The notes: generated by a model from the letters alone, not told the origin. A DNA stretch of 64,000 bases from Psammoneis japonica (GCA_008632985.1 QPGO01000003.1:186001-250000); one strand, 5' to 3'; numbered from the stretch's first letter, positions 13,813 to 38,400 are shown. Translations and numbers: made by a program.

Positions 13813-14685
13813 TTACTTGGTATCAATTCCAAGCAACAAATTCGTCCCACCACCGTTTCCACTCGACCCACTCGCTCCTCCTCCACTGCTACTTCCACTG
13901 GGCAAGTAGACAATATTCCTCGAATTGGCCAATTTGCCTGCAATTTCCTTGGCGGCATCAATACGACGCACTTCCACAATGGCATTGCCCGTCTTTTCCA
14001 TGGCACTTGTAATGATTTGTGCCGCTTCGGCTTCCCCTTCGGCACGCGTCACAACGGCTTGACGTTCTTGTTCGGCACGTTTGACAACCCACTGTTGTCG
14101 TTCGGCTTCTTGTGATGCCACCTGTTTGGCTTCAATGGCACGCATAAATTCGACACCAAATGTCAAATGCGTAATGGCAACATCATCAAACTGTAAATGA
14201 AAATTCTTGGCTCTCTTGATCATTTCACCCTTGATGCGTTCCGAGACCTCGTGACGTTTGCTCAACAACTCTTCGGCATTGTACTGGGCCACGACACTTT
14301 TCAAAACTTCATTGCCGATACTCGGCAAGACACGTTCATCAAAGTCAACACCCAACTCTCTATAAAGACGTGGCAACTCTTCCACGACGGGTCTCCATAA
14401 TACCCTCAATTTGATGTTTACCATTTGCAAATCCTTGGTACCCGTCACAGAGGGAATTTCACGGGGTTTCGTACGGACATCCATGACGATGGGACGTTGA
14501 ATGACGGGAACCATAAAGTGCGTGCCTTCGCCAATCACATGAGGACGGATACCACCCTGGAGTGTATCAAACATGACGGCACGTTCACCGCCATCGACAT
14601 TGTAGATACAAGAATTGACGGTGAAAGCACCGACGGCCAATGCACCCGACATGGTTCCGAGAGAACGTAAAATCTTGTCCGACAT
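13813..14685 (-). CDS. PHB1: Prohibitin (SPFH/Band 7 family, PHB1-type)
   Basis: IYNVDGGERAVMFD, TGTKDLQMVNIKLRVL, DERVLPSIGNEVLKSVVAQYNA, AIEAKQVA, AEGEAEAA, NIVYLP. Confidence 0.96.
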   Translation of the reverse strand: MSDKILRSLGTMSGALAVGAFTVNSCIYNVDGGERAVMFDTLQGGIRPHVIGEGTHFMVPVIQRPIVMDVRTKPREIPSVTGTKDLQMVNIKLRVLWRPVVEELPRLYRELGVDFDERVLPSIGNEVLKSVVAQYNAEELLSKRHEVSERIKGEMIKRAKNFHLQFDDVAITHLTFGVEFMRAIEAKQVASQEAERQQWVVKRAEQERQAVVTRAEGEAEAAQIITSAMEKTGNAIVEVRRIDAAKEIAGKLANSRNIVYLPSGSSSGGGASGSSGNGGGTNLLLGIDTK

Positions 14686-14921
14686 GGTGCTAGTAGTAGT
14701 TGTTTGTTTGTTTCGAGTGTAGTAGAACGTTTAGAAGACGAACAACAATGTGTACAACAGCACCAACAAACAAAGAGCCTCTTGGTGCTGACGCTGTGAA
14801 CTGAGATTTTCGATCTTTTTCCACCTGCTTCCGACAACGTACATTTCTACGTGCTTCTGGTAGTCGTTCCAAACGTGTGGTGGATTGATTCTTCTCTGTT
14901 TGACTCGAACGGGCGACCGAC

Positions 14922-16225: not shown

Positions 16226-17700
16226 CCAACCACAATGCCAAACACACAGAGCTTGTGAGGCAACAAACTGAGAACCGCAACAAGCAGTGGTCTTGGCAGC
16301 AACTTGCTTCTTTTGGAGAACAGGCCAACATGGCCAATCAGAAACTTGTTGAGGAACAGAGTGCAGAGTTCTTGCTCATCAGCTCCACCTCCAGATCCGA
16401 CTCACAGCTCCAGTGGGGATTTCAAAGCCACAATGCTTGTGGCAAGAAGGCACCACCACAGTGCAAAGGAGCCCAGCTTGGCTGTGATCTCCCTGCTGCT
16501 CTCCTGCTCAAGCATGATGCTGCAGCTTGAACATTTAAAACTTGGATGGCAAAACTTCACAATGGACCTTTGTGCAATGTGGTGCAATGCAAAAAGCTTC
16601 TTGGGTGTGATCCTGATCTTCCCATCTGACAAATTGGGCAAATTGTCCTGGCCAGATTTGACAATGGGTGAAGGTGACTCTCCACAAGTTGTCATCCTGC
16701 ATGGGAACCTTTTCACAACAGCAAGAACAGCAACAGGACCAGAGCACTTGGGAGCCAAAGCAATGTTGTGAGTTGCTGGAAACAAATTGATGTCACACCG
16801 CTGTTGCTCCCCAGGCAACAAAGGTCATGGAGAGTGACAGCTGCTGATTGACAAGGAGCATCATGGTCAACTTTGTGGGGCAGAGCCATTGAATGATCAC
16901 ATGGATGGGTGTGTTTCAATGGCCACATCTCTTCCACCACAAACCTCGTCACATGAACAAACCCTTGGTGCTTCCCCCCCCCCCCCCTTGTGTGTGAGAA
17001 ATCAGTTTCTGCTGTTCATTTTGTCCAAAAATTTGTGCTGAGTCTTTTTACGCAGACTTGGCAAAAATTGCACATCAGCATGTGATGCACAGATTTGTGC
17101 CAATTCACTCAGATCATGTTTTTCACAAAGGAGAGTGATTGAAAAATTCCTTGGGTGTGAAATGGGAGGCAAGCACTGAGGGTTTTGTTTGGGTGACAGG
17201 GTTTGTGGCAGAGACATGAGATCATTGAAAAACATCCATCCACTCAACAATTGCTCAAAGGCTCTGCTCCAGAAAATTGACTGTGAGATCCCTCGTGGAA
17301 ACTGGCAGTGCAGGGCATGCAGGGTTCAAAGACAATGGCCCCAACAGACAGGGAACAAGGTGTTTCCCAGATGTTGTGCTTGTCAGGTGGAGAGTTGAAA
17401 GAACACCAATGTCCAGCTGCAAGACAAGGGCCCAAAGTGTGGGACATGTTCATGCTGTGGGAGTCACAAGCCTGGACACTTGCAACATTGCTGTCAAAAA
17501 ACATGTCACCATCTGCATTGGAAGGTGCAAGGTTGGCACAGGGATGAGCCTGCATTGGAGCACGGGCAGTGCAGCTGGCAGCAGAATGGGCGGGACTTTT
17601 GGGGTGGCAGCAGAGAGCAACCAGTGCAGCACAGGAATGACAAAACCCAATGTCTGTGTTTTAAGTGCTGCTGCGCTTCCACCCTGCAACTCCGGCAACA
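15010..17700. other. TpA- and CpG-depleted degenerate sequence, probably an old transposon or gene relic; includes (CAG)n at about 16178-16222
   Basis: Almost no TA, very TG/CA-rich, no recognisable protein motif. Confidence 0.6.
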
Positions 17701-17749
17701 AGCTAACCCACACTCCCAGCACACAATGTGCGGCAGGAGCGCACAACAA

Positions 17750-20700
17750 TTGGCCATCATCGGCATCGCCGAAAGGCGATGCCAACCCGAAGCAGCTGGC
17801 AACAGAGCATGTGCCTCGCACGGCAAGCCGTTTGGCTTCCCGCAGACTAGACTTGAACATGGGCTTTGCCACAGCCAACCAATTTTGCATCCGATGGGTG
17901 GAATGGGTCAAATGCTCTTCAACTGAATCAAGGAGTTGGAGCTTGTCTCTTGCTGAGCACTCATCTGCCCTGGAACACATTTCTCTGACTTCAGCCTCCA
18001 CGTCACGGCGTTGAGCAGATCTCTTTGTTTCAGAATCGTGTCCATGCACGGCATCATTGTGCATGTCCCACAATTCCCACCACTGTGACCAGATGTAACT
18101 GCCAACAGTCGCCGCCCAATCAAGACGTTTCTCCCTGTCGGATGAAGCATGACACACACCTGCAGCTGGCAGGTGCGACCGCTGGGCCACATTCCATGAA
18201 GCAGAAAACCTGCCACTGAAAACGTGTCACCATCCAATCCTTTCTTGGGACCGAAAAGTTGCATGTGTGCTGCAATGAAATTCCTCAATGTGTGGCATTT
18301 CCTCACAAAACCACCCTTCTAGAGAACCCAGGAGCATGTCCCGCAAAGCCGGGGAGGCACTTGTGTCATCGCATTTCTTTCGAAGATCTTGAAGAAATTT
18401 GCGTCTCCATGCCTCATTGTGAGGGCAACAAAGGATGTGATTGCGGTCCTCCATCGGATGTTGACAATGGATGCAACAGTTGGGACGAGCAGGGTTGCAC
18501 CTCTGCACAATTTTGTTTGTTGGAAGGAGATCCTGGACTGGTTTGATGGTGCTCACCTTGCGCCGGATGTTCCTCGACATTAGTTTCGAATGCACTTGCC
18601 AATCGATCGACTGACGCGCAATGTCGGACCACCCATGCTTCTCTTTCACATGTTGTGTGAGAGCTGGACTGGATGCCTCATGCCGAAGGACAGTCTTGAA
18701 GTTTGAAGTCAAGGCACCCGCTGGAATGTTGAGCAATGCGGAGCAATTGGGCACACGGGGCACAATGGAAGTGTCACCATCGTGCTGGCCTTGGAATCCG
18801 GCAGCTAGCGTGTCTGCTCGAACGTTCAATTTAGCAGGGAGAGACAAGTGTTGATGCGGAATGGTGTCGTCTTGGTGCCCTTTCACCCAGGAAAGCATCG
18901 CTGGTGTGCCCTGCACACCTTCACTCTGCACACCTTGCAACTGTTGCAAAGAAATAAAAATTTCGTGAATGACATCCCAATCAGGAGCCAGGGCATTGGA
19001 AACATGGTGCCTCAGGCGAAAGTCCTGTTCACGGTGAGTCTCGTCCGCATCGTCGGGGTGTGGGGGCAGTGCCTCGAAGTTCTGAATGTTGCAGACCAAG
19101 GAAGAGTTGTCGCAGCGACACTCTGTCCCAAGTGGAAAGGTCCGATTGCAAAATGTCACAACACAAAGAAGGAACCGCACCACTGAAAGGCAACCACAAG
19201 CCTCTGTGCGATGTGAGGAAGGACGAAATCCAAAGACTGGGCCTGCACAATCCACCAGAAAAACTCCCCGGACAGATGACGTCCAGAAAAAGGCGCCATT
19301 GTGCTGCACCACCGAGCCATCACTGCCGACCATTGCACGAGAGTTGGCCAATGTTTCCGCCAGTTCAAACACTGACACGTGCAGCATCAAGTCTTGAAAC
19401 AGGGCCGATTCCCGTTTGGGCAAAGAACGGACCCAAGCAACAAATTCACCCGGGACAGGGAGACTCGGAGGAATTGACACTTTAGAGAATGATGATTGAA
19501 GACGCCACTTTCCATTGTCGGTGGTGTCAACCAAAACGGGAGATGCCAAAGGCGACAAGTCTGGAACAGTCTCCAGGTGCCTCAAAGATTCCGCGCATCC
19601 GTCTCGGACGGGGTGTGCATTGCATCCAATGTCAGACCGGATGTACAAAAACTGTTCGCTCGGTTCAAAGCAAGCCGGGAATTGTGCGCGCATGTCGGCA
19701 GTGGCAACAATCCGTTGTCCCAATGGATGTTTCAGTGAAGAAGTGTCATCCTTGCAAAACAAGGCACACGCTCGATGCCACTGCTTCCAAGCTCTGGGAG
19801 ATGGAGACGGCTGTTCCACTGGGTCACTCAATGAAAAACTGCTGAGGAGGGAGCAATCACCTGCCAATTCAAACTCATCAATGGACAGACCGTCTGGAAG
19901 AGCAATGTCAGAAACCGTGAGCACGTTGAGATGCAATCAACAGCAGTTGATCCAGCGGATCTCTTTGTTGGAGAATTCGCCAGACTCAAGCACAACATCC
20001 ATGATGTGCTGATCGTTGTCCCGCTGAAGGGGTGACACACCCGCATCGTCCAAGTCGAGAGAGGCATTGATCCAAACCAGAAAAGATTGCAGAGACATGA
20101 ACCATTTAGATTCAGAATGAGGCAGTTTGGAATGAACATCCACTAAAAAGCTGATGCCAGTGCCCAATTGAAGCTGTGTCCAAGCCACCGTAATGCATGA
20201 TAAAACATGAGGTTGACCCCTGCCGTGCCAGTGCCGAGTGAACTGTGTGCATTGGGGTGTGCCTTGTTCCACATCTAACGACCGAAAACCGCCTCCACCA
20301 AGAGCACACGGACCAAACAGCACGTCTCGTTTTGTGTTTCGGTTGTGCCCACACTTCGCAAAAATTGTCTGCATCGCTTTCCACTGAACCTCCAACAACT
20401 CCTTTGGCAAGAAGTGAGTGTTCGGGAGATCACAAGACATGGACGACAAGTGGCAGGCGAAGCAATGCGTCCAAGCTTCGTGCCTGTCAAGAGGACACGC
20501 TCTAAGGAACAAGGCAATGTCATTGCTCTTCCTCTTTGATGCCAAGTGTTGTGTTTTCTGAGTGCCAGCGGGAGACTTGCAATGCCCTGAGGTCTTGTGA
20601 GATGAGCAAGCTGAAAGCTGGGTGCTAGACCTCTTGGCAGTGCGGTCGGCGGAGAAAATTTCAATGTCAATTTTGTCGTTAAAGGGGCGCAAGTGAGGTT

Positions 20701-23700
20701 CGCCATCCTCCATGAAAATCCATTCAATGGCATGAAATGAGCATTTGGGAAGCTCAAGTTCGTGGCCAGCAGCATTGAGAAGGTCACACCACATTTGGTT
20801 GTCTTCCTGCATTTTTGGAACCAGGTCCATGGCGGACGGCTGAGGGGAGGCACAAAAGTCATTGACTTGCTTCGAGGTGTCGTCCACGCATCCTCTGATG
20901 AACAGTTTGAGGGACTGTTGTCGGTCAGGAGATTCGAAACAGGTGCTGTGAGCTTTCTCATTGAATGGCCAGAACAGACTGTTGCACATTTGATTCCAGT
21001 AGAATGGGGAATTGCCACTGCCCTGTCCCGTGCCACAGATCGAGAACTCAGAAGAGTGAGAGCATGAGGTTGCAGACAGGCCGAGAACCGTTTTTGGCCA
21101 ATGCCAGGCGCCCTCCAAGGTGGCGTCAGCGGACTGTGTGATCTGCTTGGGCATGCTGTCACTTCTGCTCTCCAGTGCCGCTAAAGCAGGGACATTTCTG
21201 TCATGACAAGAAGTGCAGTCATCATCACTGTGGATGGCAGTCTTCCTCGACACTCTGCTGATTTCCAGCATTAATTCCTCGAGGTAAACGGGAGTGTTGG
21301 CGTTTAAGAATGGTCTTGTGCCACAAACTCCTGGATTGCACAGATGCTGATGCTCCATGTTCTGAGCAAGGGACCGCCATTTCACAGGTGAATTTTGGTG
21401 TTGCCAGGTTCTTTGAAGATCACAATGTTGGCGATGTCTTTCCAACGATCATGCGAGTGCCCCCAGCGCAGGGCGTAATTGAGCAAGTTCAAACGGGTTT
21501 GAGTCAAGGTGCGTTGGACTTTGTCCAATGAAGCACATTCCGGAGCAGGTTCACCATCAGCAGTTTGGGAATGAGAGTGAGCGTGGGAAGCATGCATTGC
21601 TTTCCAATGGCCCAGATGAAGGCCTGAGAAAAGCGACGTCGATGCAGACTCTTTCCACGGCTTGATCTTGCCTTCCAAATCCTGAGCCATTAAAAACTGT
21701 GACACAGACACTGGAGAACGGCATTGCAAATGAGTGACAAACCGAGACGCAGCTTCATTGAGCACAGACGTGTCATGCTCTCCATCCAGAATAAGATCCG
21801 CCACAACAGTGTCCCCTGAATGACCTAAGTCCACAGACAGAGGGGGAACAGTGGGAGGCGTCCCATCAGCTTGCCCAAAATGTTTCTGATTCCGTGTGCG
21901 CAGTGCCGAAGCTGCTTCATCCGGAGCATCAACAGTGATCCAATCCATGCATTCCTTTGGAGGGATCGCCAGATTCAGTGGAACTTGAACACTGTTGATC
22001 CCAGTGTCACGTTCAGCTCCGCATGACTTGATCTTTTGGAACAGTTGGCGGTCTCTGCTGCCTTGCGAAGGTTGCGTAGAACAGTTGCCTTTTTACGAGA
22101 AGCTGCAGCACCCTCCATTTCTAGCCGAGCAATCTTGTCAGCAATTTCATTGTCTTGATGCTTGATGCTCTCAGCCGCGACCTGTTGACACTCATTCTGC
22201 GCTTGTCGCAAAGCTTGTTGGCACTCTTCAAAGGCAGATGGGATCATGAATTTGCCACTCAGGCTGGCGCGGACATTTTGAATCTGAGCCGTGTGATCAA
22301 TGCGGGTGCACATCACAGACAACACATGGGACAAGATGCACACTCAACAACGTAAATCCGCCAACTGAGTCAACCACTCCGGTTCTCGGTGAAGGCGACA
22401 CTTCTTCGCTGCTGCTAAAGAAAACTGCAACAGATCCCTGTCCAGCCTTTCTGCCAATTCATGATCAGGAGTGATGGACTCCAGGAGTGAAGCGGACCTC
22501 TCCAAAACGTTCCGACTCTCTAGCATGGGATCGATGGTTTGCAGGCAGGTGGTGACTTGAGGTTTCAAAGACACTTGCAGGTCTCGAAAGGCTGCCTTCG
22601 GAAGATCAACGGTCGGGTTGCCAAACAAAGTGATGGCATCAAAGTCCACGAAGTGAGCACGATGATCCGAAGCAATGCAGTGTCCAAATGCTTCATGGCC
22701 ACCAAATCGTGCAGCGGCCAAAGCACCAGGGGTGGCTAAAACGAAATCCAAGGGTTTTGACCCCCTTGTGCAAGTAGAAAATGCCGTGTCTCCTGTGAGA
22801 GAAAACATTGCATCGGAGAGATTGAACCGTTGGGCCAAAGCAGACAGAGAGTCGGTGTCAATGACGAAGTCCGTGTTAAAGTTCCCAAACAAAATAACCT
22901 CACGGTTGGAATCTGCAAGAAACTCTTGCAACAAACGAGATGGATCGGTGCAGAATGCTTTGCAAGGGTCAAGGTGTTGTTGGCCCTGCTGACGCAAAAG
23001 GTGAAGCTGCTGAGTGCATGCTGTTGTTTTCCCAGGCCGTGTTTGATTTTTGGCACACACTCTGCAGCAGGAAATGAACATGACTTGTCTGCCATTTCTG
23101 CCATCAAATGTCTGGATGGACCAACGGCCCAACAGATCAGCCTCCTGAGAACAGCAGCGAGCAGACACCGCATTGCATGACAGCAAAGCCGTGCCACCAG
23201 GCTCACATTGTGTAGAGAAAGGAGTTGAGCTGCAGGAAAAGGTGCCTCTGCCGTGATGAAGGGAGTTTGTCACCGTGGAACGGCAAACTGATAAAACCGA
23301 ACATTGGGTGGTGTCCAAACAAACCTCTGACATGCCCACAATGTCAGCCTGCATCTCGTTCGTGATCTGACAGTGTGCAGCGAAGTCTCCTTTACATTTG
23401 TCAAACTTGCTGCCATTTGCATTGAAGGTGCACAGTCTGGTGTGATGTGACAGCTCAGGCCCCACAGAGTCGCCAACGGAAACGTTTGTCTTCAGGCGGG
23501 AGAAATCAATGCGTCGTCCGGCAGAGGATTGAAACCGCCTGCCATCCAAGAGTGTCTGCCATGTGGAAGACATGTCTGTTGAAATGGTGCTGCTCATGGT
23601 TGGGCCACGCTCCTCTGAAGAGAAGACTGGGGCTTGCAGCACTGCCAGCAGGTTGAACCGAAGAATGAGGGCACAGAGAAGACTGGGGCTTGTCGCAATG

Positions 23701-25740
23701 CAACGGGTGTGAGGCAGCATGAAAGGAGAACTTGCGATGTTGAGATGTGCGTCAAAAAACGTGTGCCAAAGTGTGGGACTCTTGAAGTCGTGAGGCAACA
23801 TCAGGAGGATGCCCAATCTTTTGAGGGGGTGGAGGCGGCGAAGTCCAACCCCGCGCTAAAAATCCTTCTCCTTGTCTTGATGGTCGCCAGGCCTTTCTGG
23901 TGTTTCGTTGTTGTTGGGACGTTTCCGTGCGACACTCTGTGTGGGTTGGCTTGCCTGTGACAGTTGGACAATCTGATTCATCTGTGACTGCATGCCAGAC
24001 AGTTGTTGCGAGCAGTGGTCCCGTGTGGCCATCATGTCATTCGTGTGCTGAGTGGTGAAAGTGTCATTCAATGCTTCCATGTGCCGAGAATGTTGTGCAC
24101 GTAACTCAGTGAGGGCTTTGTCATGTTTCTCTTGCATTTGGTTCATTGTCTGTTGCACTTCTGCCAACTGTGCTGCAGTGATTGACGAGCCAGCGGTCGA
24201 CTGTGTTGCCTGTGCATGAGAGTGCTGGGAAGACGTCAAGCTTTGACATCCGGGAATGCCATGGGAAGGTGGGGAGAACTGGGAATGCTGAGTGAAAATG
24301 TGAGGAGGCACCGCCAAGCCTTGAGTCGTCCCTCGTCCAGGGTGACCTTGTCCTTCATGACCACGTCCGGCAAGTGGTTTCGAAGCAGGTTGTGTCAAAC
24401 TGGGAGCCTGATTGTCAGTCAGCGGAGAAACGTCCGAAAATGTGAGAGATTCGAGACTGCGAATGCCAGCCAAAACGACAGATTTACTTGTGTCAGACAA
24501 TTCTTCGAAAACACCTGACACTTGAGGAGGTTCCAAAAACAGGGGAGATGGGCAAGATTCTTTCGAAACAGAAGGGATCAGATTCACAACGCACGTGGAA
24601 ATGGCTGCTCGGATGGTGTCAAAGTTCCGACGGTCCACTAGAATGTTGTGTCATCCATCAACAATCGTTGATTTGAAAATGTCCTTCACTCCAGTCAGCG
24701 CTTTAAGGTGATGTTCAAAACAAAACATCATGTCCGGGGCAGTGTTCAACAGTGGCACCACAAAGGCATCTTCATTGTGACGAGCTTGCATCTTGACGGC
24801 ATTGTAAAATGCAAGAGGGGAGACATGACGAGTTTTTGCCATCACGACATGAGTCGGGAGTTTGTTCGAAGCACAGAGCAAAGCCTTGCCCGCAGTGCGA
24901 CATTCTTCGCGCAAGACTTCAACGGCAAAAGTCGCTGTCCGAAGCGGGGTGGCAAGTCCATCATTGTCGGCACGGATCAAAGCAGGTGCCAACCGAAATT
25001 GCGGCATTTTAGTGCGGAAGCCTCCGAGATCACTGATGAATGATTTGGCAGCTTCGTCGACTGGAGTGTGTTTGGTGGATGCAGCAACATGACATGCCGG
25101 AGCAGCCGTGTCAATGTCGGACTCGTTCCAGAAATGACGTTTCACACCCATGTTGTTGGAATCCAAAACACTCTGGACATGTGGATGGGAACGAATTTCG
25201 TGCAGTGGAGTCTCAGTGAGAATGCGGTGACATGGGCAATGAGTTGCCGGGCGTTTCTCGCCACTGTGATTCGTTGTGACAACAAAGTGTTGTTTGTGTT
25301 GGAGGGAAGCAATCCATTCTGCCACGTTGACATTCGTAATGCAGTTGTTGTGGTTGTCAAGAATCTGAGCATCCTTGCAGCAAGTGAACAGAATTTGCTG
25401 TAAGACTTGCAAATGGGCAGCAACAAGAGTCATGGGCTTGCACGACAATTCTTTGCCACGAATTTCAAAACGGAGGGTGATCTCTTCGAACTGACACTCA
25501 GTTGGCTCAGAAGAAAGCTTGATGGAAGACTGGTCAACAGCAACATCATCTGCCACAATGGCATCTTTGTTGCGAGCAGGGGTGTGGCTGCCGTCAGCGA
25601 CGGAAGAAGACGCCGTGGTGGTTGGCTGTTCTGCGGGGAACCTGGTGTTAAAATTGCGTGGGTAATGTCAATGCGAGTGTGCGCAGAATTGTGGTGCAGC
25701 ACAGGAAAGAGATGCTGCCACACACAACCCAGGTGAAGAC
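17750..25740 (-). mobile_element. Degenerate non-LTR retrotransposon (LINE; APE-RT-RNase H-zinc knuckle, Ambal-like)
   Basis: ORF1 about 25556-23856. ORF2 in one frame broken by TGA stops: APE (RLCTFNANG, DIVGMSE, VILFGNFN, LDFVLAT, ASDHRAHFVDF), RT (GTGQGSGNSP, GCVDDT, LELPKC), RNase H (VGSDGSV, SSHRTEACG, CDNSSLV, WVKGHQD, LNVRADTLA), CIHC...EDRNHILCCP. Ends are approximate. Confidence 0.9.
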
Positions 25741-26472
25741 GACCATCTTGAAACTTCTCATGAGTGAACATTGCAGCCTTTGGGAGCATGAAAGCTGATG
25801 AAAGCCACCAGAAGCAGACCCTTGCAAGCACGAGGCAGAGTTGCAAGGGCGCCATTGCTGCTGTCATGCCAGAGGGCATCAGCGGTGCTGGGAGCAAAGG
25901 ATTGCTGCCAATCATGACACCCAATGGCACCATCAATCAGTGGTCAAAGCAGAGTGGGGAAGACCATCAGCAGGTCAATCCAACGCAGCACCACCAATCA
26001 CATGCTTGAAGCTGCCAGGAGGGGGAAGGTGGAACTTTCTTGGCAGGGTCAAGAAGGAAGAAGCTTGGGCTTGAGTTTTGCAAACTGTGGCATGCTCTCA
26101 CATTGGCATTTCTGGCTTTTGCACTTGGTGCACCGCCATTTGGTTTGGCAACAGGTGCTGCATTTGGAGCATCGTGCACTGAATGTGACAAGGAATGCCC
26201 AGGTGCACACCACATCCAACATTTGTCCAGCGGCTGAGCTGCAAAGAACTCAAAGCTGCAGCACACAAACACATGTCCTGGCATGACTTTTCCTTCCCAG
26301 CTGTGTCAATGAAAAACCTTCCAACCATTCAAGAAGAGGTCAAGAAGGCATTGCAGCAGCACGCCATGTGCAAAAGAAGGGCAGCAAATTGTTGCATGCC
26401 GCACACAGGGCCCTGCCGGAGCTGCAGGCTGTTTCTTGCCGAAGATGAAAAAAATGTGCGCAGCCCTGCACA

Positions 26473-27458
26473 GTGCAATGTAATGGATGCACAAACATGA
26501 GGGACACCCCTCCCCTTTCGACGGATGCCGTCGTAAGAACTGTCGGTGGGTGTCTCAACCAACGCTTCCAAACGAGAGAGTTCATCATTGTGGGATCCCA
26601 TCCAGCTGCCGTGCAATGCTTCCAAACTGATCAGACCAATCTCCTCTACAATGACATTGACGTGCATTTCGAGAAACCTGGCACTGCACAGGAAACTCGA
26701 AACTCCAATCAACTCTGTGACTGTGAAGCTGCCTCTTTGAACTCGTCGGTGGTGCCAGCTGACCCCTGGGTTAACCACATTCTGAACACGAGCATTGAAC
26801 ACTTCCAGACAAATGACAGGCCCACAGAAGTGAACTTCATTGAGCTCAGAAGTGGTTGCCTGGACCTTGAGAGGTTGATTGGCGGATTTGACTGCAGTGC
26901 AGTTCAGGTTGGATTTTTGGCTGAGCCATCTTGAACGCAACCAACGCGATCGTCCGCTGGCATGCTCATTCAGAGTTTGAGCAATTTCGGTTGACTCGTG
27001 GAGATTCAAAGATCCTCAAGATCTCAAATGTTGCCCATCCCGGTGCAAGCCCTGCCTCGGCTTTTATTCGCCTGATGCACAAAGCCGAAACATTGGGATT
27101 GCGCCATCAGCTCCCGGAAGAAAAGCTGTTGTTGAGAACGGTTGACGGCCACTTTTTTGGTGAAAAGAACAAAAGGAAATTGAAAAACCTTCACCCTCAC
27201 TTAAAGAGGGAGATTCTCTCCCGTTTCCAAGTGCAGCGAGTCCTGCTCTACGGCAAAACAATGCCCGGTTTGATCAGAAAGGATGACCAACAGCCCATCA
27301 AATTTGCTCAACAAGTGTCTGCTTTCAGCGCTCTGCTCACATCAAACCGTCCTCGCCAAGCTTCTTTTACCTCTGCTTTGCCCACATTGGGTCATCCTCA
27401 TGACTCTCCCCGCCACCAAGCAAATGAGCAGAACCCATGCCTGCGCTTCTGTTGCTGA
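26473..27458 (+). pseudogene. Degenerate ORF with a nucleotidyltransferase-like motif
   Basis: IIVGSHPAA...LLYNDIDVHF and later FDCSAVQVGF resemble the hG[GS]...DhD pol-beta-type motif; interrupted at about 26932. Confidence 0.4.
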
Positions 27459-27574
27459 TGAAACCTTCACTGTGAACATCTCTCCACCCATCCGTTTGCT
27501 CTGTCAGCAAGTTGCACAGCCCGGGCACAGCATTTGCAGCATTCCACCCCAAGAGTGCAATCACTGTTTGTAGC

Positions 27575-27887
27575 ACGATGGCACGTTCTCAGCCATCAAC
27601 ATCGCAAGTGTTCGACATTCCACGGCAAGGCACCCAGACACCCACAGCCAGTGGTGCGTCAACATGGTTTCAAGAGAACGTGAAATCTTGTCTGACATGG
27701 TTGCCGGCATGGCAGTTGTTGTTTGTTTTCTTCGAGCAGAACAATTGAGCAGACTGACAACAACATAAACAGCAACAACAACAACAACAGAGCGAGCCTC
27801 TTTTTTGGTGCTGATGCACTGTGTGACCTGTGTGAGATAGATTCGATCTTTTTCCACCTGCTTCCGACAGCTTGCATTTCCATGCTG
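27575..27887 (-). pseudogene. Truncated, mutated duplicate of the prohibitin 5' end and upstream region
   Basis: MSDKISRSLETM vs MSDKILRSLGTM; ttcgatctttttccacctgcttccgaca is shared with 14809-14836. Confidence 0.9.
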
Positions 27888-27891
27888 AAAG

Positions 27892-28049
27892 TGTTTTGAC
27901 AGAGCAAATCAGTGACAAAACATGATCTGTTCAAATTGTGAGACGAGCCTCAAGTGGATCTCGGTCTTCTGCCAATGTCCTCAGAAAATGTCAAAGACAT
28001 CCGAGAACCAAGCCAACATTGTCTGTCAAGCAACGGACAGACTAAAACA
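27892..28049 (-). repeat. 3' LTR of the Copia element, preceded by a polypurine tract (28050-28057)
   Basis: TGTTTT...AAAACA termini; minus strand reads GAGGGGAA|TGTTTTAG; aligns with 33982-34172. Confidence 0.85.
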
Positions 28050-30127
28050 TTCCCCTCAATCTAGCTGGCTGGACTTGGTCACATCGACAAGCTAGATTGC
28101 TGACAAAGGAAATCATCAACATCATGTGACAGCAAATTTCAAACAAACATCCAAATGGGAAACTCCAGGCAAAACCCACGTCATTGGCACGGAACTCCAA
28201 ATGAAACCCTCTGCGTTGGCACTTTGTTCAGCCGACCATGGCCTGCTCCACCTTCCCACCAAGACAGTGCAGAATCATTCCCACCAACCAACATGCACAG
28301 TTTGCCACTCATCATGTGCTGCACCCTTTGAACAAAGTGGTGCCACACCAAGCTGTGACATTTCTTCTTCAACATTGAGAAGGGGACAGAGTGGCTGTTT
28401 GCCAGGACGACAGACTGGTTGTTCCCTGTGACAAATGCCAGCCCAATGACCGGAATCCCCATCACCCGGAGCTCATGCCAAAGCCCACAAATGCACTCCG
28501 TGCATTGCTTCATGCTGGCAAACTGTTGGACCCAAACAAGCTTGTCTCAATGCTCATCTGCTTCTTGGACATCCAGCACACAGGAGAAGAGTTGAGATGC
28601 ACTGCAAGGAATCCAGCACACGAATGGCAAGTGATTGAGTCACCTGCATGGTCTGCATCCATGAAAGCTCACAAAATCACAATGAGACCTCTGGCTTCAG
28701 GCATGTTGGCAGTCATCTTCTCCCACATGGCAAGGCCAAACTTGGAGGTTGTCCAGTCCTGTCGTGCAAACAGTGCTTCATCAATGACAGGGTCACTGGG
28801 GTCAAACACCATCTCCATGTTGTGGCACTTCTTGAGGTGTGCAAAGATGCAGTGCACCTGTTCAAGGTGTCCCTCTCATGGCAGCACCAAGTGCAAGGAC
28901 ATCGTCAACACTTCAAGACAGATGCCAACACACCCAAGCTCAACTGTCCAATGCAGGACACCATTGAGCAATTGACAGTGGGCTGCATCTGCTGGTGACA
29001 GCTCCACACTCGCATCAAGTTCAGGATGGCATGAGCTGCTGAAGGGAGTTGGGGCCTTGGCTGGCAGCTTCTTGCCCCTTGATGCCAATCAGGTCTCCAC
29101 ATTCTTGACCACCGCCTGGGTGTGCTGAGAAGAGCTGAAAGCCCATGCCTTGACTCCATTCTCAAGCTCTGCTTTTCACAAGTGACCACCCAGGTGCAAG
29201 CCAGGAGGGCCAATCAAGGCCTCCTTCAGTGGGAAGTTCTCACCAATCTCACTCCACAGAATCTTCTCAGCATTGTTTGAGATGCACAGCACATTGTCCG
29301 TGCACAGAAGAACATGCTCCCAGCACTCAGTGCCATCCTCCTCTCAAGGGCCACACACATCCACACATCAGGGTCAGCCTCACAAGGCTCAAACCCAAGG
29401 TGTGAGACACACACATGCAGGTGATTCTGGAAGTCACACCCAGCCAACTTGCCTCCATGCAAAGCCACCTTTTTGCAAGTGGAGAATGTGGTTTTGATGC
29501 AATGGTGATGCAATGTTCACGTCGTGAATTTTTTGTGTGATGTGGTGTCACTGAATTTTGCATTTGCACACAAATGCTGCCAACAGCAACAGAAAAAATC
29601 CTGAACGATGGGAGTTTTTACTTGATGACACAGGCACACATTTGCAAGAACATGATGAATGTGCCCAACTCAATGCATGTGATGATGTCATCACACATCA
29701 CCCACACCCACATCCCATGGGACCACTTGCGAAGGGGTGATGCTGAACAAATGCTGACATGCTGTCACGAACAGGCAATTTATGTGCTGTTGGTGATTGG
29801 TCCACTGTCGCTTGTTCAGTGGTCCCAGTGGCGTGACATCTCACAATTCTAGAACCTGTTGATGCTGCTCAACACTCTGTCTTGTCTTGCGCCCAATTCT
29901 TGGCTGTCATGGTGGCATTTGTTCAATGCAAAGCATGGTGAATGAGAGCATGCTTGCCCACATTCTCAAGTCCAAATTCAGGGCCACAAATGACACAGTG
30001 CTTCTGAGATGATGGAGCCTGCAAGTGTGCATTCTGGATGTTGGCCGTCATTGCATTGATGTCATTCAGGGCAGCATGCATCAATGTGGTTCTGACACTC
30101 TCCCTGGATGCAACCCCAGCGTGCATT

Positions 30128-31357
30128 GAACCCTCAGGACTGGAGGTCTTGTGGCCATCAAGCACCCATCTGGCCATCCTGTCCTTGGTCATCTTGACAT
30201 CAAAGACCAAGTGACCAGACTGCTTGGACCAGCCAACCAGAGCTGGGGTGATGTCATCAAGGACCTCAAACACAACACCTGCATCACGCATCTCCTTTGC
30301 AATTGCATGCTCCCACAGCTTGTTGCCATTCTGGTGATCGAGTTCCGGTGCTTCTTCCACAGTGTCAGGAAGCTTGACTCTGCACTTGTGTGCAACACAT
30401 CGCACACGCGCCTTGACCGCCAACACTGTGACATCTCACTTGTGCAGTGTGTGAGGTGTCCCCACCATCAGAGGGCTGGCTCATCATCCATGCCCCTCAC
30501 CTTGGCAAACTTGGCTGTTTCCACCGGACGAGCATCATGAACCCCCTCAGGACTGGAGGTCTTGTGGCCATCAAGCACCCATCTGGCCGTCCTGTCCTTG
30601 GTCATCTTGACATCAAAGACCAAGTGACCAGACTGCTTGGACCAACCAACCAGAGTTGGGGTGTTGTCATCAAGGACCTCAAACGCAACACCTGCATCAC
30701 GCATCTCCTTTGCAATTGCATGCTCCCACAGCTTGTTGCCATTCTGGTGATCGAGTTCCGGTGCTTCTTCCACAGTGTCAGGAAGCTTGACTCTGCACTT
30801 GTGTGCAACACATTGCACATGCGCCTTGACCGCCAACACTGTGACATCTCACTTGTGCAGTGTGTGAGGTGTCCCCACCATCAGAGGGCTGGCTCATCAT
30901 CCATGCCCCTCACCTTGGCAAACTTGGCTGTTTCCACCGGACGAGCATCATGAACCCCCTCAGGACTGGAGGTCTTGTGGCCATCAAGCACCCATCTGGC
31001 CGTCCTGTCCTTGGTCATCTTGACATCAAAAACCAAGTGACCAGACTGCTTGGACCAACCAACCAGAGTTGGGGTGTTGTCATCAAGGACCTCAAACGCA
31101 ACACCTGCATCACGCATCTCCTTTGCAATTGCATGCTCCCACAGCTTGTTGCCATTCTGGTGATCGAGTTCCGGTGCTTCTTCCACAGTGTCAGGAAGCT
31201 TGACTCTGCACTTGTGTGCAACACATCGCACACACGCCTTGACCGCCAACACTGTGACACATCTCACTTGTGCAGTGTGTGAGGTGTCCCCACCATCAGA
31301 GGGCTGGCTCATCATCCATGCCCCTCACCCTGGCAAACTTGGCTGTTTCCACTGGAC
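30128..31357. repeat. Tandem triplication, 413-bp period, inside Copia pol
   Basis: ccctcaggactggaggtcttgtggccatcaagc at 30131, 30544 and 30957. Confidence 0.95.
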
Positions 31358-33981
31358 AAGATTCCTTCATGTCCTCAAGGGAGACCTGCGACTCGGTCTC
31401 ATCCCTCCACAGCACAAGGAACTTCCATCCGCAGGTCATCTTGCATGTTCATTGCCACTTGCCCACCTTGGCATGCATGTTGTCCTTGGTCACAGCAGTG
31501 TCATCCTTGGCAAAATTGAGTGTGCTGTCAAAAACATTGAGTGTGCAGCCTTCAGAGTCAACTTGAGAAAGCAAGTTCTCTGTGATGACATTGGCGGCAT
31601 GTTCCTTCACCTCCCCATCAGGAAACTTGACTTCACACACTGAGGTGTTCATGATCGGGTTGTCACTGTGCACGCCAACAGCTCAGCCATCCGGGTCCAC
31701 AGCACAGCCAACAACTTTGGCTTGTTGGATCCTGTCACCTTGAGGTGGGGCAAGCTCAGCGTGAATCATCTCATTGTGCAATGGAGCTGGGTTGATGGCA
31801 CTCCCTTCAGCATCAACAGGGTCGTCAAAAATGCACTGGGTGTGTTCTTTAATGTCTGAAGAATGTGCTTGCCACCCCCACTTCTCACAGCACAAAGAGT
31901 GGCAGCAAGTTGTGGTCCATCATCAGAATGTGAAGGGCATTGTGCAGGACCAACAGGTGCATTGTCAATGAGTGTGGACAGTCATGTGCAAGAAGCACAT
32001 CAACAATCCTGATGTCCTTCATCGACTCATGCTTGGGGCTGAAGGGACTGACTTGAGCTGTGTGACTGGCATCACTCAGGACATGTGATCCCTTGCCAAC
32101 AATGACCATGTCAGCATGTGAGTCCAGTTCGGTGCACGATTCACTTTTGTCTTGAGTCTCTTTGTTTGTCTCCATTGTGACATCAGAGATTGCATGTCAA
32201 GCAATGAATTTAAAAGAAGAACAGAGTGATTGGGAACAGACAACTGCAACTTCATGGCACAAAAGATGCAATTTCTCCCCTCAAGCAAAGAGACATGGGA
32301 ACAAAGTGCCATCCCTGCATTTCATTTCTTGTTTCTGGCACAACACAAAATGAATTGCAGCGTGATGGATGGAGGCTTGAACTGGACTGACGCTGCCTGA
32401 GCAGGGGCAGCAGCAGGGGCAGGAGGTGGAGAAGGGGGAAGTGGCTGAGATGCAGATGATGCGGCCTGGACAAGGGAGAGCAGGTGGGCTCCAGCCTTGG
32501 CATCATTGGACTCAGCATCGGGCTGCTCTTCTTTCTTGTCATGGGAAGCCAGCTCAGAGGCCACAGCTTCTGAAATCATTTTCTTGATTTTCTTGTGTTG
32601 GCCACGCACCACTGCTGGCGCAACTTTGGATCCTCCTTCTTCTGAGACAAAGTCTCTTGAGTCTCCCTCCCACCCTTCAGTTCAGTCTTCTGTTTGGAGT
32701 TCGGTTTCCAGCATTTGGTCTGAGTGTGCCGGAGCTCCACACCTGCACTGCCAATCCCGGACTTGACAGTGATGAAGTGAGCTGCAGAGACTTCAGCATG
32801 AGGATGTTTTGCAGTGTGCTTCTTTGTCACAGGATCACAGGGCCAAAGACAGGTGGCTGTGGCCTTGAAGTCACTTTGTTTTCCATTTGGTCTGTGGCAT
32901 TGTTGTGAACCAGAGCCATTGCAGCCTGCAATGGCACATCAGACATCTCAACAGCATCCAGGAGATGCGTGACATGTGCACACTCATTTGGAAGCTGGTG
33001 GGTGACATGTTCCATGCACTGTTGCACAGAGACAAAGGCGTTGTGATGCTGGACAACAAATTGATCAAGAGAGAAGTTCAGTTGGGCCCTCCACTTGCAA
33101 GTGTGGATGAAATCCTCTTGCTTCTTGACTTTGGCTGCCCGCTTGTCCTTGCTGGCATGCTGCAATGTCAATGCAATCCACGCCGCTCTTCCATCCTTCC
33201 TGCACTGAAAAGGCTTGATTGACGCTGCATGTGAAGTCCCATGAGTGGCTTGCTTGAGTGCACAATGCACCAAGGAGTTGTCCTCTCAAAACAATGGGTG
33301 AGCATGGCCAGAGCAAGCCATGAGCTTGTCTTTGACAGAACCATGTGCATCAGAGCAGGGTTGATTTGCAGTGAGTGCTGGCACCGCAGGGTCAACTGCA
33401 ACAGTCTCTCAGGTGACACATGAGAGTGGAGTGACCTGACCTCCAATGACAGGCTGCAGGTGATCACGGAATGCTTCAGCCCATTTCACAATCAGTGGTG
33501 ACATGGTGATCCCAGGAACTTCTGGGTCATCCTTGTTCTTCCTGCCTTTGAGAGCCTCCCAGGCGCCTGTTGGAAATTCTTGAGGACCAGATTCCAGCTC
33601 ATGTTGGTGGCAGACAACTCACAACCCACAGCCTCATGGCAGTGCGCCGCCTGCCTTGCAACCTTGAGACGCGCCATGCTCTTGGTTCCAACAACAAATG
33701 TTGGTGTTTGCCAAATGACAGCACCAGCAGCTGTGCCAGGATTGGGGTCTGGAACAGCACTCTCTGGTTGTTTGAGGTTCTCAAAGACTTGATTGAGACC
33801 ATCCTTGTTGAAGTCAGTGAGGTCAGCAACACATTTGAGACCTTTGACAGCCAGCTGCAACCGAGTTGAATTGGGCAGACCCATTTCTTGGTCATCCTCC
33901 TTGAAGAACAAGGTGGTCTGTGCCACAGCAAATGCCATTGCTTCAGCAAGTCAGGGCATGGCTCTGACAAAGGGCCAAAAG

Positions 33982-34172
33982 TGTTTTGATGGAGCAAATC
34001 AAAAACAAAATGTGATCCATTCAAATTGTGAGATGATCCTCAAGTGAATCTCTCGGTCTTCTGCCAATGTCCTCAGAACGTCAAAGACATCTTACAGAGT
34101 CTTGCTTTCTGAGAACCAAACCAACAAGTGTGCCAGTCACTTTGTCTGTCAAGCAACAGTCAGACTGAAATG
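33982..34172 (-). repeat. 5' LTR of the Copia element
   Basis: tgttttga...tcaaattgtgaga...cctcaagtg...tcggtcttctgccaatgtcctcagaa...tgtctgtcaagcaac...cagact shared with the 3' LTR; TGG (PBS-like) a few bases inside on the minus strand. Confidence 0.85.
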
Positions 34173-35428
34173 TCTGCATGCATCTGGTGGTCGTTCCAAA
34201 CATTTGGCAGATTCTTCGTCGTCGTCATGTTGTTTTGTGTTTGACTTTGGGCACCTGACAGATGCGCGCACACGATGTGCCATGTGCTGACCTTTGCTTG
34301 TTGTTGGTTTGGGTGGCAGACAAAAGTTTTCCAGAAAAACACAGAAATGGAGTGCTTGCTGTTGGCCACAAATGACTTGGCTGCCTGGACTGGGATGGCA
34401 CACCTGTGAGCATCACATGGGGAGATTCTTCTTTGCAAAGAAGGCAGCCCCTTGACTTCTTGATGCGGCATGCAAACCACCTTGTGTGTTTCTGAGGCTG
34501 AGAGGTGGGTGAGTTCTTGCCCGATGAGTGTGTCAGAGCCAGGAGTGATCATTTTGTCATGCCAAGTCCCCTCTGAGCCCCCAAGTGCTCACAGAGAATT
34601 GTTTGCACGCCCATTTGCACGGAGAAAATCAAATCCCACAATTTGGGTGTGCGGCCTTCAAACATCTCAAAAAAAGAAAGCCGAGTGGGCCATTTTGTGT
34701 GGAAAGTGACCAGATGAAGCAGGGTGGTGTGTGAAAGATTTCTGCCAAATCACAGCTCTCGGTGTGATGTCACAACCTCTGTCTGTCACTCCCGAAGTTG
34801 TGCAGCAAACACACACCACATGCTCCATGCTGTGCACAAAAAGACAGGCTCCAAATGCTGGCATGTCATGTTTGCTGGTCAATTTGTTGAGTTGTTTGGG
34901 ATCCCTTCCTTTTTTCTGTGCATTTCCTGTGCAAAGTTGGCTCCACAATTTCCCGCCTCGTGAGAAAGCACAGTGTGCTGTGTGTGTGAGAAGAATGATG
35001 GCTGACACCGACAGAAGAACGCTTTTCCAGAACTTTTGCACTTAGAAGCAGACAGCGTTGCTTGACAGATGTGCTTTTTGGTTTCGAAATGTCTGATTGT
35101 CAATCGCAAGTGATTGTTGAATTTCACGGAAGAAGCACGATGGAAATCTTTCGCTCACCCCCGCCCGCCGCGCCCTTTTCAAAATTATCCATCTGCCATC
35201 ACGGATGGACATCTATGAGGTCATTGTGGCATGTTTTGTCGGATCTCGGGTCATCGGGGCTTAAGTGACAGTCTCAATCAAGCAATCAAGTGCTTCCATC
35301 ACCCGAAACAAAAATTTCATCACTGTGCGGTGCCGTATCATCAATATAATGCGGCATCGTTTCACAACAAAGAGGATGGTCATGTCTTTGGATCGAATGT
35401 GCAGAAGTCAGAATTAAATGTCATATTC

Positions 35429-38400
35429 ATGATGCTATCAACTTGGTGGCGTGGTGGGTTCATCCTACTGCGCTGCATAGTCGTGTCTATTTTGCTCGGC
35501 GTCGCATCTGGAGAATACGACGAGGGAATAGCTATTTGGGAAACGCGAGGTTCAGCACCCCCGGGTTACGCCGTTTGGAATGGTACTGAGTTCTCCACAA
35601 TTGACAATATGAAAGGGACGGGGGGAGTTGAATGGCGAGTGACTCGCGGCGCTTACGCGCCCACACGTGATGAAGCCATCGTTGTTGGTCTTACTTCACA
35701 AAGAGTAGTCACAGCCCAAATGTACTCTGGAGGAATTTGGAATGATCTCCCCTTCTCACCTCTGGATGACAACGCACACAACTCCTATAGGCATCATTTG
35801 ATGTTGCGTACGAATCTCAAAGCGGAAACGCCATTCTGGTTTACAGTAAAGGTGTCGAAGACGCTATATATTTTCGAACCTATGATGGTGCGACTTGGAG
35901 CTTGGAATCTCGAATGGATTCTCCAGTCACTAGTGACTCTAGCAATCGACTGAATTTGGTTGCAAATCCAAAGTCAAATGAAATGGTTCTAGTTGGCGGC
36001 GTAAAACAAGGCTCTGACTTTTGCATGGTGTGGAATGGGAAACGATGGGACAATGTGTTAGTTTTAGAAAACGACAGCAGGGCTGCGAAAACACTTCTGT
36101 TGCTTATGAACAACAGAGTGGCAGAGCACTAGCTGTTTTCGCCAAGGAATTATCTATGAACCTAGGATATCGAATATGGACTGGTTTCAGTTGGAGTAAC
36201 GAATATTCGCTTGCCCCACCAAGTGAAATCTCGGGTTATCGCGTTTTGCACGTGATCTTGCGTTCGGACGCTTCATCTGATCGAATTGCGATGGGGGTAA
36301 CAACTTATGCTGACAACGCCTTCTGGGTGCCGTCTGGGACGGAAACCTTAGTTGGGGATCGACTAAAGTAACCGCTTCTGGCTTGGATAGTAAGCCTCAA
36401 CAAGCCATTGACGTCGCCTTTGAATCCGCATCTGGCATGGCTCTTGCGACGTACAAAAAGACTTCGTCGAACTACGTATATTACAGATTTTGGAGGAGCA
36501 GTTGGTCAGATGAGTATGTTGGACCTAATATTGGAGACGAACCAAGTACGATACTGTTATCGTCTTCGCCGAACGGACATGACATCATGCTTTCCGTCCA
36601 AAACAATAACGAAGAGACCAGCTTTTGCAGGTGGAACGAGAATGGCTGGGGCAAGGCTTACAAAATGACCAGTGACACAGATGTGAGTGTCCCTCGTTTT
36701 AGCTTCAGTCAGTTATTCTTGTGGAAGCGAACATTGGTTACAAGTAGTCCTACTACTACACCGTCGGCGTCGCTGACAGTGCAACCTTCAAAATCTCCAA
36801 CAATACGGCCAACCGAAAAATCAACGGTTGTGTCGACGTTCCACAAGGTTGGCATGACCCTGATGGCGAGATATACAATTGTGCTTGGTATAGTTTGGAT
36901 GACAACTGCAAAGAATACGGAGATTTCTTTGAAAATTTTGGAGCCACGGCGAATAGAGCCTGCTGTGGATGCGGTGGAGGGAACCTTCTGCCAGTCGATC
37001 AGACTACACGAAGATTACAGTCCAAACCCCCATCCTGCCGACTCCACGGCCTTCGCCACTACCGACAAGTGGCCCTCCCTCCTCCCACTACAGCTACACC
37101 AACAGCCAAGCCGACCGACCGCCCTACCATGGAACCAACAGCCAAACCGACGAAAGGACCAACACGGTTTCCAACGAAGGCGCCCGTCATCCAATCCGAC
37201 TGAATTCCCAACCCTGGAGCCATCAGCCAAGCCGACGCGAGGTCCAACACGAGTTCCGACACTGCCTCCCACGAGAAGTGCAACTGTTTCACCGACATCA
37301 GCTCCAACGCTTCCTTTGACAATGCGTCCAACCATGACCCCTACGAAGAAGCCGACTTCGACACCTTCAAATCCTTCTTCTGCTCCTACGGCTCAAACAC
37401 ATGATCCGACGGTGCGACCAACGTTAGCCCCAACTATTTTGCCGACCGCCCCGGCGGCAACGAATCCTACAGTGTATCCCACACAGTCCCCTTTAGCATC
37501 AGCGACACCATCTCAGACTCAGAGACTGACGCCAGTTCCGAGTCAGGGGCCAACACCCTTCTCATCAAACAATGAAACACCTTATCCAGTGCATCCCACT
37601 CTTACGCCAGCCAATATATCCAAGTTCACTCTGCCGCCTGACGCTGGCGACTCCGACAATAAAGTGCGAGTAGACGTAGAGCCGGATCCTTGGGTGCTGG
37701 TAAGCCGTGCTCAGACAATAGGCAGTGCAAGTCCTCTACTTGTCGGAGTGGCGTTTGTATGGCATCGCCGGATTGCTATCCGATCAAACACACGTTTGGG
37801 ACTCCATTTTACAAACACAAAATTAACATCGTGTTTGTTCCATCCGCATTCGCTTCATTTGGTCATGATGCTTGGCATGATCACGTCAATAAGGCATATG
37901 GATTCATGCAAAACTACAACATGTTTGCAGAAGATATCGACGTGCTCAACGTTTTTAGGGTGGATCCTTTGAATCTCGATGAGTCATTTTGTGCATTGGG
38001 ATGTCAGGGATTCGACCGACTCTTGTGCTGCGACGTAAAACGTACCCATGCGTTGGCCAGCAAGTGCTTCCCTGTCGGACCTAATCTTCAAACTGTTGTC
38101 ATTCATAGCTCAAGGCAATATGGTGGTGCAGGATACACTAACGCAAACATTGCTACGGCTACAATGCATCCTGCCGCCCCTCTCGTATTAGTACATGAGC
38201 TTGGTCACTCGCTCTTTGAGCTGACCGATGAGTACTCGTACGGAGAAGGAAGTGCCTTTGAGGCAAATTGTGACTCAAGCTTATCATGTAAGAAATGGTC
38301 CGATCTGATGAAGAAAAAGAACAGACCGCAAGGTTACGAGAGAGTGCAATGTATTCCTGGATGTGAGGACAACAACTACTTTGTAGCAGGCAAGACATTC

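Follow-up and report, generated by a model that had tools for sequence, protein, structure and literature searches.

TpA hypermutation is in print, as far as full-text searching showed, only in a 2026 preprint on the rhizarian alga Bigelowiella natans (Mettrop et al., bioRxiv 10.64898/2026.01.13.699255). According to that preprint, the targets are sequences of giant viruses and virophages integrated in the genome, new mutations arise at a very high rate in some cell lines, with 231 at TpA in the mutation-accumulation lines, and an ADAT-type adenine deaminase is the proposed agent. The bases that flank TpA are not analyzed in its main text, which describes the mutations by dinucleotide alone. 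Neither TpA erasure in diatoms nor a flank preference of such erasure turned up in the same full-text search. Here, we describe the flank preference of a TpA-erasing process whose traces lie in a stretch of 64,000 nucleotides of the diatom Psammoneis japonica (GCA_008632985.1, QPGO01000003.1:186001-250000; the whole stretch is called the window below). The affected DNA includes a dead long interspersed nuclear element (LINE), a dead Copia element and copied pieces of host genes. As in the B. natans system described in the preprint, nearly every change is A>G or T>C, TpA is the sole target, the products are TpG and CpA, and the changes are confined to foreign or repeat-like DNA. While the B. 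natans record consists of new mutations in cultured lines, the one examined here is a fossil record in transposons and gene copies; unlike what the preprint describes, it is accompanied by CpG decay and follows a graded flank rule.

Other systems are related in part. In Neurospora and other fungi, repeat-induced point mutation (RIP) produces dense transitions in repeats with a flank preference, converting CpA to TpA and so raising the TA content. The process described here shares with RIP the dense transitions confined to repeats, the sharp edges, the dinucleotide target and the flank preference, but its outcome is the opposite, because TA is destroyed (0.02-0.10 of expectation) and CA and TG are increased about 1.7-1.9-fold. 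RIP is also named as a comparator in the discussion of the B. natans preprint. The hypermutation of retroelements by APOBEC3 (PMC4866542) offers an analogy in the strand-wise mutation of mobile DNA and in a flank motif that serves as the fingerprint of the enzyme, although its chemistry acts on cytosine, with C>T at TC or CC (PMC10661471), rather than on A:T pairs, with A:T>G:C at TpA. In dinoflagellates, 5-hydroxymethyluracil (5hmU) is reported to mark and silence transposons, and in Crypthecodinium cohnii it replaces T preferentially in TA and TC (PMC11572971). This modification, attributed to TET/JBP enzymes, resembles the present process in being directed to transposons and in preferring the T of TpA. 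However, it is described there as an epigenetic mark rather than as a mutator, and TpC is unmutated in the diatom repeats.

Results

Flanks of the surviving TpA sites

The borders of TpA-poor DNA were determined across the window by two-state Viterbi segmentation, with TA density as the only input. The window proved to be ordinary gene DNA alternating with six sharp-edged TpA-poor domains. The gene DNA has an observed/expected ratio (o/e) of 0.5-0.6 for TA and about 1 for CG, and the corresponding values in the domains are 0.02-0.10 and 0.23-0.75, with CpA and TpG at 1.3-1.9. The six domains total 32,973 bp and retain 127 TpA, while the other 31,027 bp hold 1,251. The content recognized in them, which consists of the LINE, the Copia and pieces of copied host genes, agrees with the confinement to foreign or repeat DNA, with sparing of neighbouring genes, seen in B. 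natans.

Each TpA was assigned to one of three flank classes, YTAR, RTAY or mixed (YTAY and RTAR), where Y is a pyrimidine and R a purine, and to one of ten strand-symmetric classes. An earlier inspection of the window (the sequence-only reading) had claimed that the residual TAs between 17700 and 34200, a region that lies inside the largest domain, are mostly TTAA, CTAG, TTAG or CTAA, with some GTAA and ATAA, and that RTAY is nearly absent. The counts are as claimed. Thirty-six of the 71 TpA in this region are YTAR (TTAA 11, CTAG 10, CTAA 10, TTAG 5), 34 are mixed (GTAA 12, ATAA 6, TTAC 6, GTAG 5, TTAT 2, CTAC 2, ATAG 1) and one is RTAY. This one is a GTAC at 19644, the single GTAC that had been placed near 19643; ATAC, ATAT and GTAT do not occur, nor does CTAT. 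In the six domains together, YTAR, mixed and RTAY sites number 65, 56 and 6, compared with 194, 660 and 391 outside (chi2 107, p=4.6e-24; ten strand-symmetric classes, p=5.7e-23), and the surviving sites also depart from equal flank use (25/50/25%; p=5e-13). Relative to the outside density, survival is 0.49 for TTAA, 0.36 for CTAA and 0.29 for CTAG, and falls to 0.03-0.00 for GTAC, ATAC, ATAT and GTAT. The depletion of NTAN tetramers inside versus outside the domains is thus far from equal, and equal depletion was the outcome that would have spoken against a preference. Within the domains, the fraction TA/(TA+TG+CA) varies 25-fold with the flanks, from 0.002 to 0.049, and the LINE, the remainder of the largest domain and the five other domains pooled each show the pattern by themselves (p<=7e-6 in each).

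Since host genes are a doubtful proxy for the ancestors of transposons, a second baseline was added. From 79 metagenomic Copia relatives, 29 non-duplicate sequences whose open frame reaches 1,000 codons or more were retained (122 kb). In these intact frames YTAR accounts for 14.7% and RTAY for 39% of TpA, and the skew of the domains is stronger against them than against the host DNA (chi2 153, p=2e-28). None of the 79 relatives is TpA-poor (TA o/e 0.42-0.97), in a search that favoured intact copies and does not address prevalence. These results confirmed that the TpA flank preference is real, with RTAY the most sensitive and YTAR the most resistant class.

Gene copies in the window gave further comparisons. 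Two paralogs of an M64-peptidase gene, one affected (copy A) and one unmutated (copy B), were aligned over 10700-11227 of copy A and from 36796 of copy B, a comparison that includes 12 TA sites of copy B. As the sequence-only reading had noticed, CTAC of copy B always reads CTGC (four sites) or TTGC (one site) in copy A and never CCAC (5/5). The two exceptions that it listed are also present, in other repeat pairs. One, CGTAAA at 14668 against CGTGAA at 27681, was read from an alignment. The other, ACTATC at 13663 and ACCATC at 4639, was located by motif position only; the ACCATC lies at the place predicted by the repeat 4546-4644 / 13568-13668.

A two-half-site model of TpA survival

Survival of a TpA was modelled as exp(-(h(y)+h(x'))), where y and x' are the bases 3' of the A on the top and bottom strands. 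The hazards obtained for the base 3' of A were 0.357 (standard error 0.087) for A, 0.800 (0.104) for G, 1.777 (0.143) for C and 2.425 (0.215) for T. With these four parameters the ten strand-symmetric classes are well described (deviance 5.2, 6 degrees of freedom, p=0.52), while a single rate for all flanks is rejected (p=2e-23). A model with two levels, R and Y, fits less well (p=0.0125) and is worse than the one with four (p=0.00075). The hazards changed little with the intact Copia baseline (A 0.39, G 0.78, C 1.62, T 2.61), and the order A<G<C<T was the same in the LINE, the rest of the largest domain and the five other domains. The idea that TAY is hit first and YTAR last is therefore borne out with regard to the Y/R preference, but the simple split between pyrimidines and purines gives way to the order T > C > G > A. 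"First" is here a statement on sensitivity, the timing being deduced from survival rather than followed over time.

The base at position +2 has a separate effect (likelihood-ratio test, p=9e-9), with an extra hazard relative to A of 0.71 for C, 0.42 for G and 1.04 for T. Among the half-sites, TAAA, TAGA and TAAG persist best, and TATA, TACT and TATT are the rarest. Depletion of TACG does not exceed that of TACT or TACC, and the value for G at +2 is confounded by CpG decay.

These analyses showed that the survival of a TpA is the product of two independent half-site terms, each set by the bases on its outer side. Loss of a pair is fastest with T or C 3' of its A, faster still with two pyrimidines there, and slowest with A or G. 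RTAY, which is sensitive on both sides, is consequently the first to be lost, and YTAR, resistant on both sides, is the last, TTAA above all. Survivor counts are blind to the difference between "A then Y" and "T-A after R on the strand of the A", because the two produce identical totals.

Surviving CpG in the six domains was also inspected. CGC and CGG are kept at 0.55-0.85 of expectation and CGA and CGT at 0.44-0.59. This flank pattern is unlike that of the surviving TpA, an indication that CpGs decay by a process of their own.

Specificity for TpA

With tblastn, 37 LINE and 53 Copia relatives were aligned to the window, and for each codon the residues that they carry were noted. At conserved codons that start with A, the change A>G is found in 27/31 cases after T, but only in 4/30 after A, 5/75 after G and 1/113 after C. 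The change T>C at the first codon base is found before A in 34/36 Tyr codons; elsewhere it is rare (Ser TCN 1/44, Phe 3/45, Cys 0/16, Trp 2/41; before G 2/57). Of 81 columns in which Tyr is the majority residue, 60 now encode Cys or His and two encode Tyr. These results showed that only the two A:T pairs of TpA change, giving TG or CA. They do not sustain the likeness to polymerase (Pol) eta that had been drawn from its preference for WA (W, A or T); since A>G is common after T and rare after A, the motif is TA and not WA.

Origin of the surviving sites

A TpA present today may have been inherited or may be a new product of another mutation. The aligned codons of the LINE and the Copia contain 40 residual TAs, 24 of them in columns with a majority residue. 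Fourteen of the 24 fit that residue: two are Tyr codons (19644 and 21476), eight are YTA codons for Leu, and four are T|A codon junctions that precede conserved Ser, Ile, Thr and Asn. Three or four (20191, 23393, 31850 and perhaps 23213) seem to be new through G>A, and the remaining six differ from the majority residue in a way that leaves their origin undecided. If all survivors had been re-created, about two-thirds of the decidable ones should be visibly new, while 4/18 are (p=1e-4). Moreover, the visibly new ones (GTAA, TTAC, TTAA and GTAG) lack a YTAR bias. Conserved Leu columns keep eight YTA codons and conserved Val and Ile columns no RTA codon (p=0.007), when the codon use of intact Copias leads to an expectation of about 42 ancestral YTA and 34 RTA. 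The sub-regions with the deepest CpG decay are those with the fewest TAs. Up to about a quarter of the survivors may thus be new, and most are inherited.

Direction of the change

Which of the two A:T pairs has changed is informative only at YTAY and RTAR sites, where one side is sensitive and the other resistant. In columns with a Tyr majority, the present codons are Cys (TGY), His (CAY) and Tyr in 17, 11 and 2 cases in the LINE and in 9, 23 and 0 in the Copia. When the base before the Tyr codon is Y, Cys and His occur 13:6; when it is R, they occur 13:28 (Fisher p=0.0115; p 0.003-0.04 over other thresholds). Four of seven informative sites in smaller repeat pairs (5094, 5440, 46704 and 14694) changed as predicted, and over all mixed-class sites 22/31 did so (p=0.029), compared with 78% predicted from the R/Y hazards. 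A logistic model with per-element offsets, applied to 60 Tyr-column and 10 copy A/copy B sites, gave a flank odds ratio of 3.6 (p=0.018), and the mirror model was 6.6 log-likelihood units below the model based on the 3' base. With respect to strand, the two elements differ, Cys prevailing over His in the LINE (17:11) and His over Cys in the Copia (23:9), and the flank rule fails to explain the latter.

The products of the reaction were analyzed as well. An index defined as the share of Y after TG minus that after CA, with strands pooled, was 0.096 inside the domains and 0.034 outside (Mann-Whitney p=0.005), and it was positive in 20/22 domain blocks and in 6/6 domains. With either baseline, TGC is enriched inside the domains 1.9-2.0-fold and TGT 1.4-1.7-fold, versus 1.0-1.25-fold for TGA and TGG. 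Only the contrast between TG and CA was used, and not absolute counts, because the product sums per flank are unbalanced.

Together, the tests give moderate support to a direction in which the A that is followed by Y on its own strand becomes G. The strand-specific T-A-Y target that had been suggested before would fit the mixed-class sites, the logistic model and the product blocks, with the reservation that, of the tests considered in the Discussion, one weakened on correction and another was null. In addition, an A with a 3' Y is the same site as a T with a 5' R on the other strand, so that the base under attack cannot be read from the sequence.

Elements and gene copies in the window

The largest domain, 14862-35185, retains 76 TA in 20,324 bp and contains the LINE and the Copia. 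The dead LINE (17400-26000, minus strand) was recognized by Pfam and by homologs and retains 52 TA. It includes an APE endonuclease domain (22347-23855) and a reverse transcriptase/RNase H part (18230-21448, minus strand), over which the 37 homologs are 30-41% identical. Tyr makes up 0.3% of its residues and 4.1% of those of its relatives. Relatives of the upstream open reading frame (ORF) at 24654-25667 were searched for, and none was found. The LINE frames (18227-25667, minus strand) are interrupted by six stops, five of them TGA and one TAG. In the sequencing run of the organism itself, the summed contig depth over 17568-26238 is about 360-830, compared with about 30-65 in the flanking DNA. 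The excess, roughly 10-20-fold, indicates a multi-copy family, with copies 80-99% alike.

The dead Copia (28340-32151, minus strand) is of the RVT_2 type and has relatives at 55-65% identity. It is internally deleted, matching residues 661-1385 and 13-105 of its relatives and lacking the part for residues 105-661. Its reverse-transcriptase region holds a 413-bp unit three times (30131-31360) at 97-98% identity; in two copy comparisons, 24/26 differences between units are transitions and the other two are A/T. When Pfam was run on the repeat domains, with open and read-through frames and stops taken as X, the LINE endonuclease was the only domain detected. With TAA and TAG erased, the domains have long spurious open frames in all six reading frames, 155 of at least 70 codons in 20 kb.

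The same domain includes a copy of a host-gene fragment (27662-27880, plus strand), derived from the end of a Band-7 gene at 14649-14847. The copy is 74% identical to the original and carries TA>TG and TA>CA changes, including GTAA>GTGA, while the original, just beyond the edge of the domain (14862), has retained its TAs. Another domain (9971-11227, one TA left) covers the 5' part of M64-peptidase paralog A. This gene extends over 10015-12896, and the domain, which ends inside it at about 11227, covers only its 5' third. Paralog B (36314-39027), 83% identical to A, is untouched, and its unmutated segment 36796-38885 (plus strand) provided the reference state for copy A. A copy of a host gene has therefore been hit, and not transposons alone. 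The window contains five paralogous M64-peptidase genes (10824-12896, 36314-39027, 44567-46039 on the minus strand, 56762-59218 and 61975-63999), at least four of them with Pro/Thr repeats.

The least skewed domain, 4393-7479, retains 18 TA (5 YTAR, 9 mixed, 4 RTAY) and has an internal repeat of 74% identity (4982-5844 versus 6227-7172). The other three are 764-2386 (4 TA left, 3 YTAR and 1 mixed; CG o/e 0.24), 46724-51805 (24 TA left, 13 YTAR, 10 mixed and 1 RTAY) and 54990-56589 (4 TA left, 3 YTAR and 1 mixed). No protein family was recognizable in these three by Pfam, or by a protein search with one ORF. This ORF, at 49418-50047, had just two weak and patchy matches among 1.84 billion proteins.

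Discussion

The flank pattern is probably a property of the TpA-erasing mutational process itself, and the agent that we infer from it is a deaminase of DNA adenines that prefers T-A-Y(-Y). Such an enzyme would work strand by strand, and the inosine left by deamination of the A would then be read as G. A plausible candidate would be a relative of the tRNA A34 deaminases (TadA/ADAT2), in whose substrates U always precedes the target A, a feature that fits a target with T before A. The natural TadA and ADAT2-ADAT3 enzymes act on tRNA loops by A-to-I chemistry, and bacterial TadA prefers C at +1 of its target A. Table 1 of PMC10661471 gives 5'-ACG as the motif of TadA/ADAT2, with "RNA, DNA?" as substrates, and 5'-UAG as that of ADAR1/2. 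The diatom process resembles TadA/ADAT2 in the T or U before the changed A. C at +1 is favoured over purines here, but T is favoured at least as much, and the analogy is a loose one. It resembles ADAR in the A>G change, in the preference for a 5' U or T and in its frequent action on repeat-derived sequence. In contrast to the 5'-UAG motif in that table, however, G at +1 is protective here (0.80, versus 1.78 for C and 2.43 for T), and while ADAR acts on double-stranded RNA, the changes described here are in DNA of both strands and include copies that are not retroelements.

Several observations weigh against a deaminase that selects A followed by Y. The ancestral counts are proxies throughout, taken from host DNA or from intact relatives. 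A T at +1 confers no less sensitivity than a C (2.4 versus 1.8), unlike in TadA. Taken by element, the Tyr-column test is significant in neither, with odds ratios of 3.2 and 3.0, and three of the seven informative sites in the smaller repeat pairs (4995, 14668 and 13663) changed in the direction opposite to the prediction. With hazards taken from the survivors and kept constant, the 3' model gains only 0.75 log-likelihood units over no preference. In the Copia a separate strand bias is present, His exceeding Cys by 23:9, and by 21:7 at RTAY sites, where the model expects 1:1. The product index is negative in two blocks, both in the Copia tandem repeat, and on both baselines the sums of products per flank are unbalanced, with an excess of C at +1 after TG and also after CA. 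At T|A codon junctions, T|G was found before 19/109 conserved ACN or ATN codons and 8/140 AAN or AGN codons (p=0.004), but in intact Copias T precedes AC. and AT. codons in 24% and 23% of cases and AA. and AG. codons in 14% and 16%; corrected for this difference, the test gives p=0.095, or 0.18 without the Ile>Val background. Visible T>C at xTA codons gave a null result in the two groups compared (8/169 versus 7/174). Finally, deamination is deduced from a pattern of mutations, and a sequence records neither the lesion nor the enzyme.

Among the other explanations, two are unlikely, to about the same degree. The lesion might form alike at every TpA and be repaired better in YTAR and purine-run flanks, in which case the preference would belong to repair. 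All the sequence results measure net fixation, that is, lesion minus repair, and the two steps are therefore inseparable in them. This explanation requires an additional assumption. The clean additive fit of two half-sites corresponds to a single flank-reading step, although a repair enzyme could also read flanks. Alternatively, the T could be the attacked base, with a TET/JBP-type hydroxylase making 5hmU at R-T-A and the modified T being read as C. Oxidised thymine mispairs with G, and the direction tests fit this scheme equally, since "A then Y" is "T after R" on the other strand. A precedent would be the 5hmU of dinoflagellate transposons, with its reported preference for TA and TC (PMC11572971), but the difference at TpC is large, with T>C in 1/44 conserved TCN Ser codons compared with 34/36 at TpA.

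A re-creation of the surviving TAs, by C>T or G>A at YCA/TGR as in UV-type or CHG-type damage, is much less probable than either. Two one-sided creation biases could add up to the 65 YTAR and the 56 YTAY and RTAR sites, and three or four of the 24 informative survivors do look as if made by G>A. However, 14 of these 24 match a conserved residue, visibly new sites are far fewer than re-creation predicts (4/18 against about two-thirds, p=1e-4) and show no YTAR bias, the deepest CpG decay coincides with the fewest TAs, and the direction and product tests, which use lost sites, follow the same flank rule. It is hardly credible that the skew reflects ancestral elements poor in RTAY and rich in YTAR. 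The comparison does rest on host genes, an imperfect proxy for these elements, but intact Copia relatives have the opposite composition (39% RTAY, 14.7% YTAR), 60 of the 62 conserved Tyr (TAY) codons that can be read as Tyr, Cys or His were converted, and the order of the hazards is the same in three disjoint subsets with different elements. Just as improbable is error-prone synthesis in the manner of Pol eta (WA>WG), or ADAR editing of retroelement RNA that is later copied back to DNA. The two share a preference for A>G after T or U, and the preprint on B. natans cites the 5' U of ADAR (bioRxiv 10.64898/2026.01.13.699255). Against them, A>G occurs in 4/30 cases after A and 27/31 after T, G at +1 is protective, both strands are hit, and so are copies that are not retroelements (9971-11227 and 27662-27880).

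The two-half-site model, the baseline of intact transposons, the effect of the +2 base, the test against re-creation and the direction tests are new here. APOBEC enzymes were identified from the flank fingerprints of their mutation patterns; in the same manner, the flank rule is a fingerprint of the mutator that erased TpA in P. japonica and argues against an agent like ADAR or Pol eta. It also provides an assay for candidate deaminases, in which oligonucleotides with TAT or TAC are compared with others with TAG or TAA. If the deaminase reading is true, a naturally occurring deaminase of DNA adenines whose context is known would be of interest to base editing. The flank rule explains which TpA sites, codons and stop codons persist in mutated repeats, which matters for the annotation of such genomes and for the dating of their transposons. 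The same bias in the 231 B. natans mutations would test if the diatom and the B. natans processes are one. It is conceivable, although we consider it doubtful, that a natural DNA adenine deaminase of tRNA A34 descent serves diatoms as a defence directed at repeats, that its enzyme family also accounts for the TpA hypermutation of viral inserts in B. natans, and that this defence is old and shared across the groups of the SAR (stramenopiles, alveolates and rhizarians).

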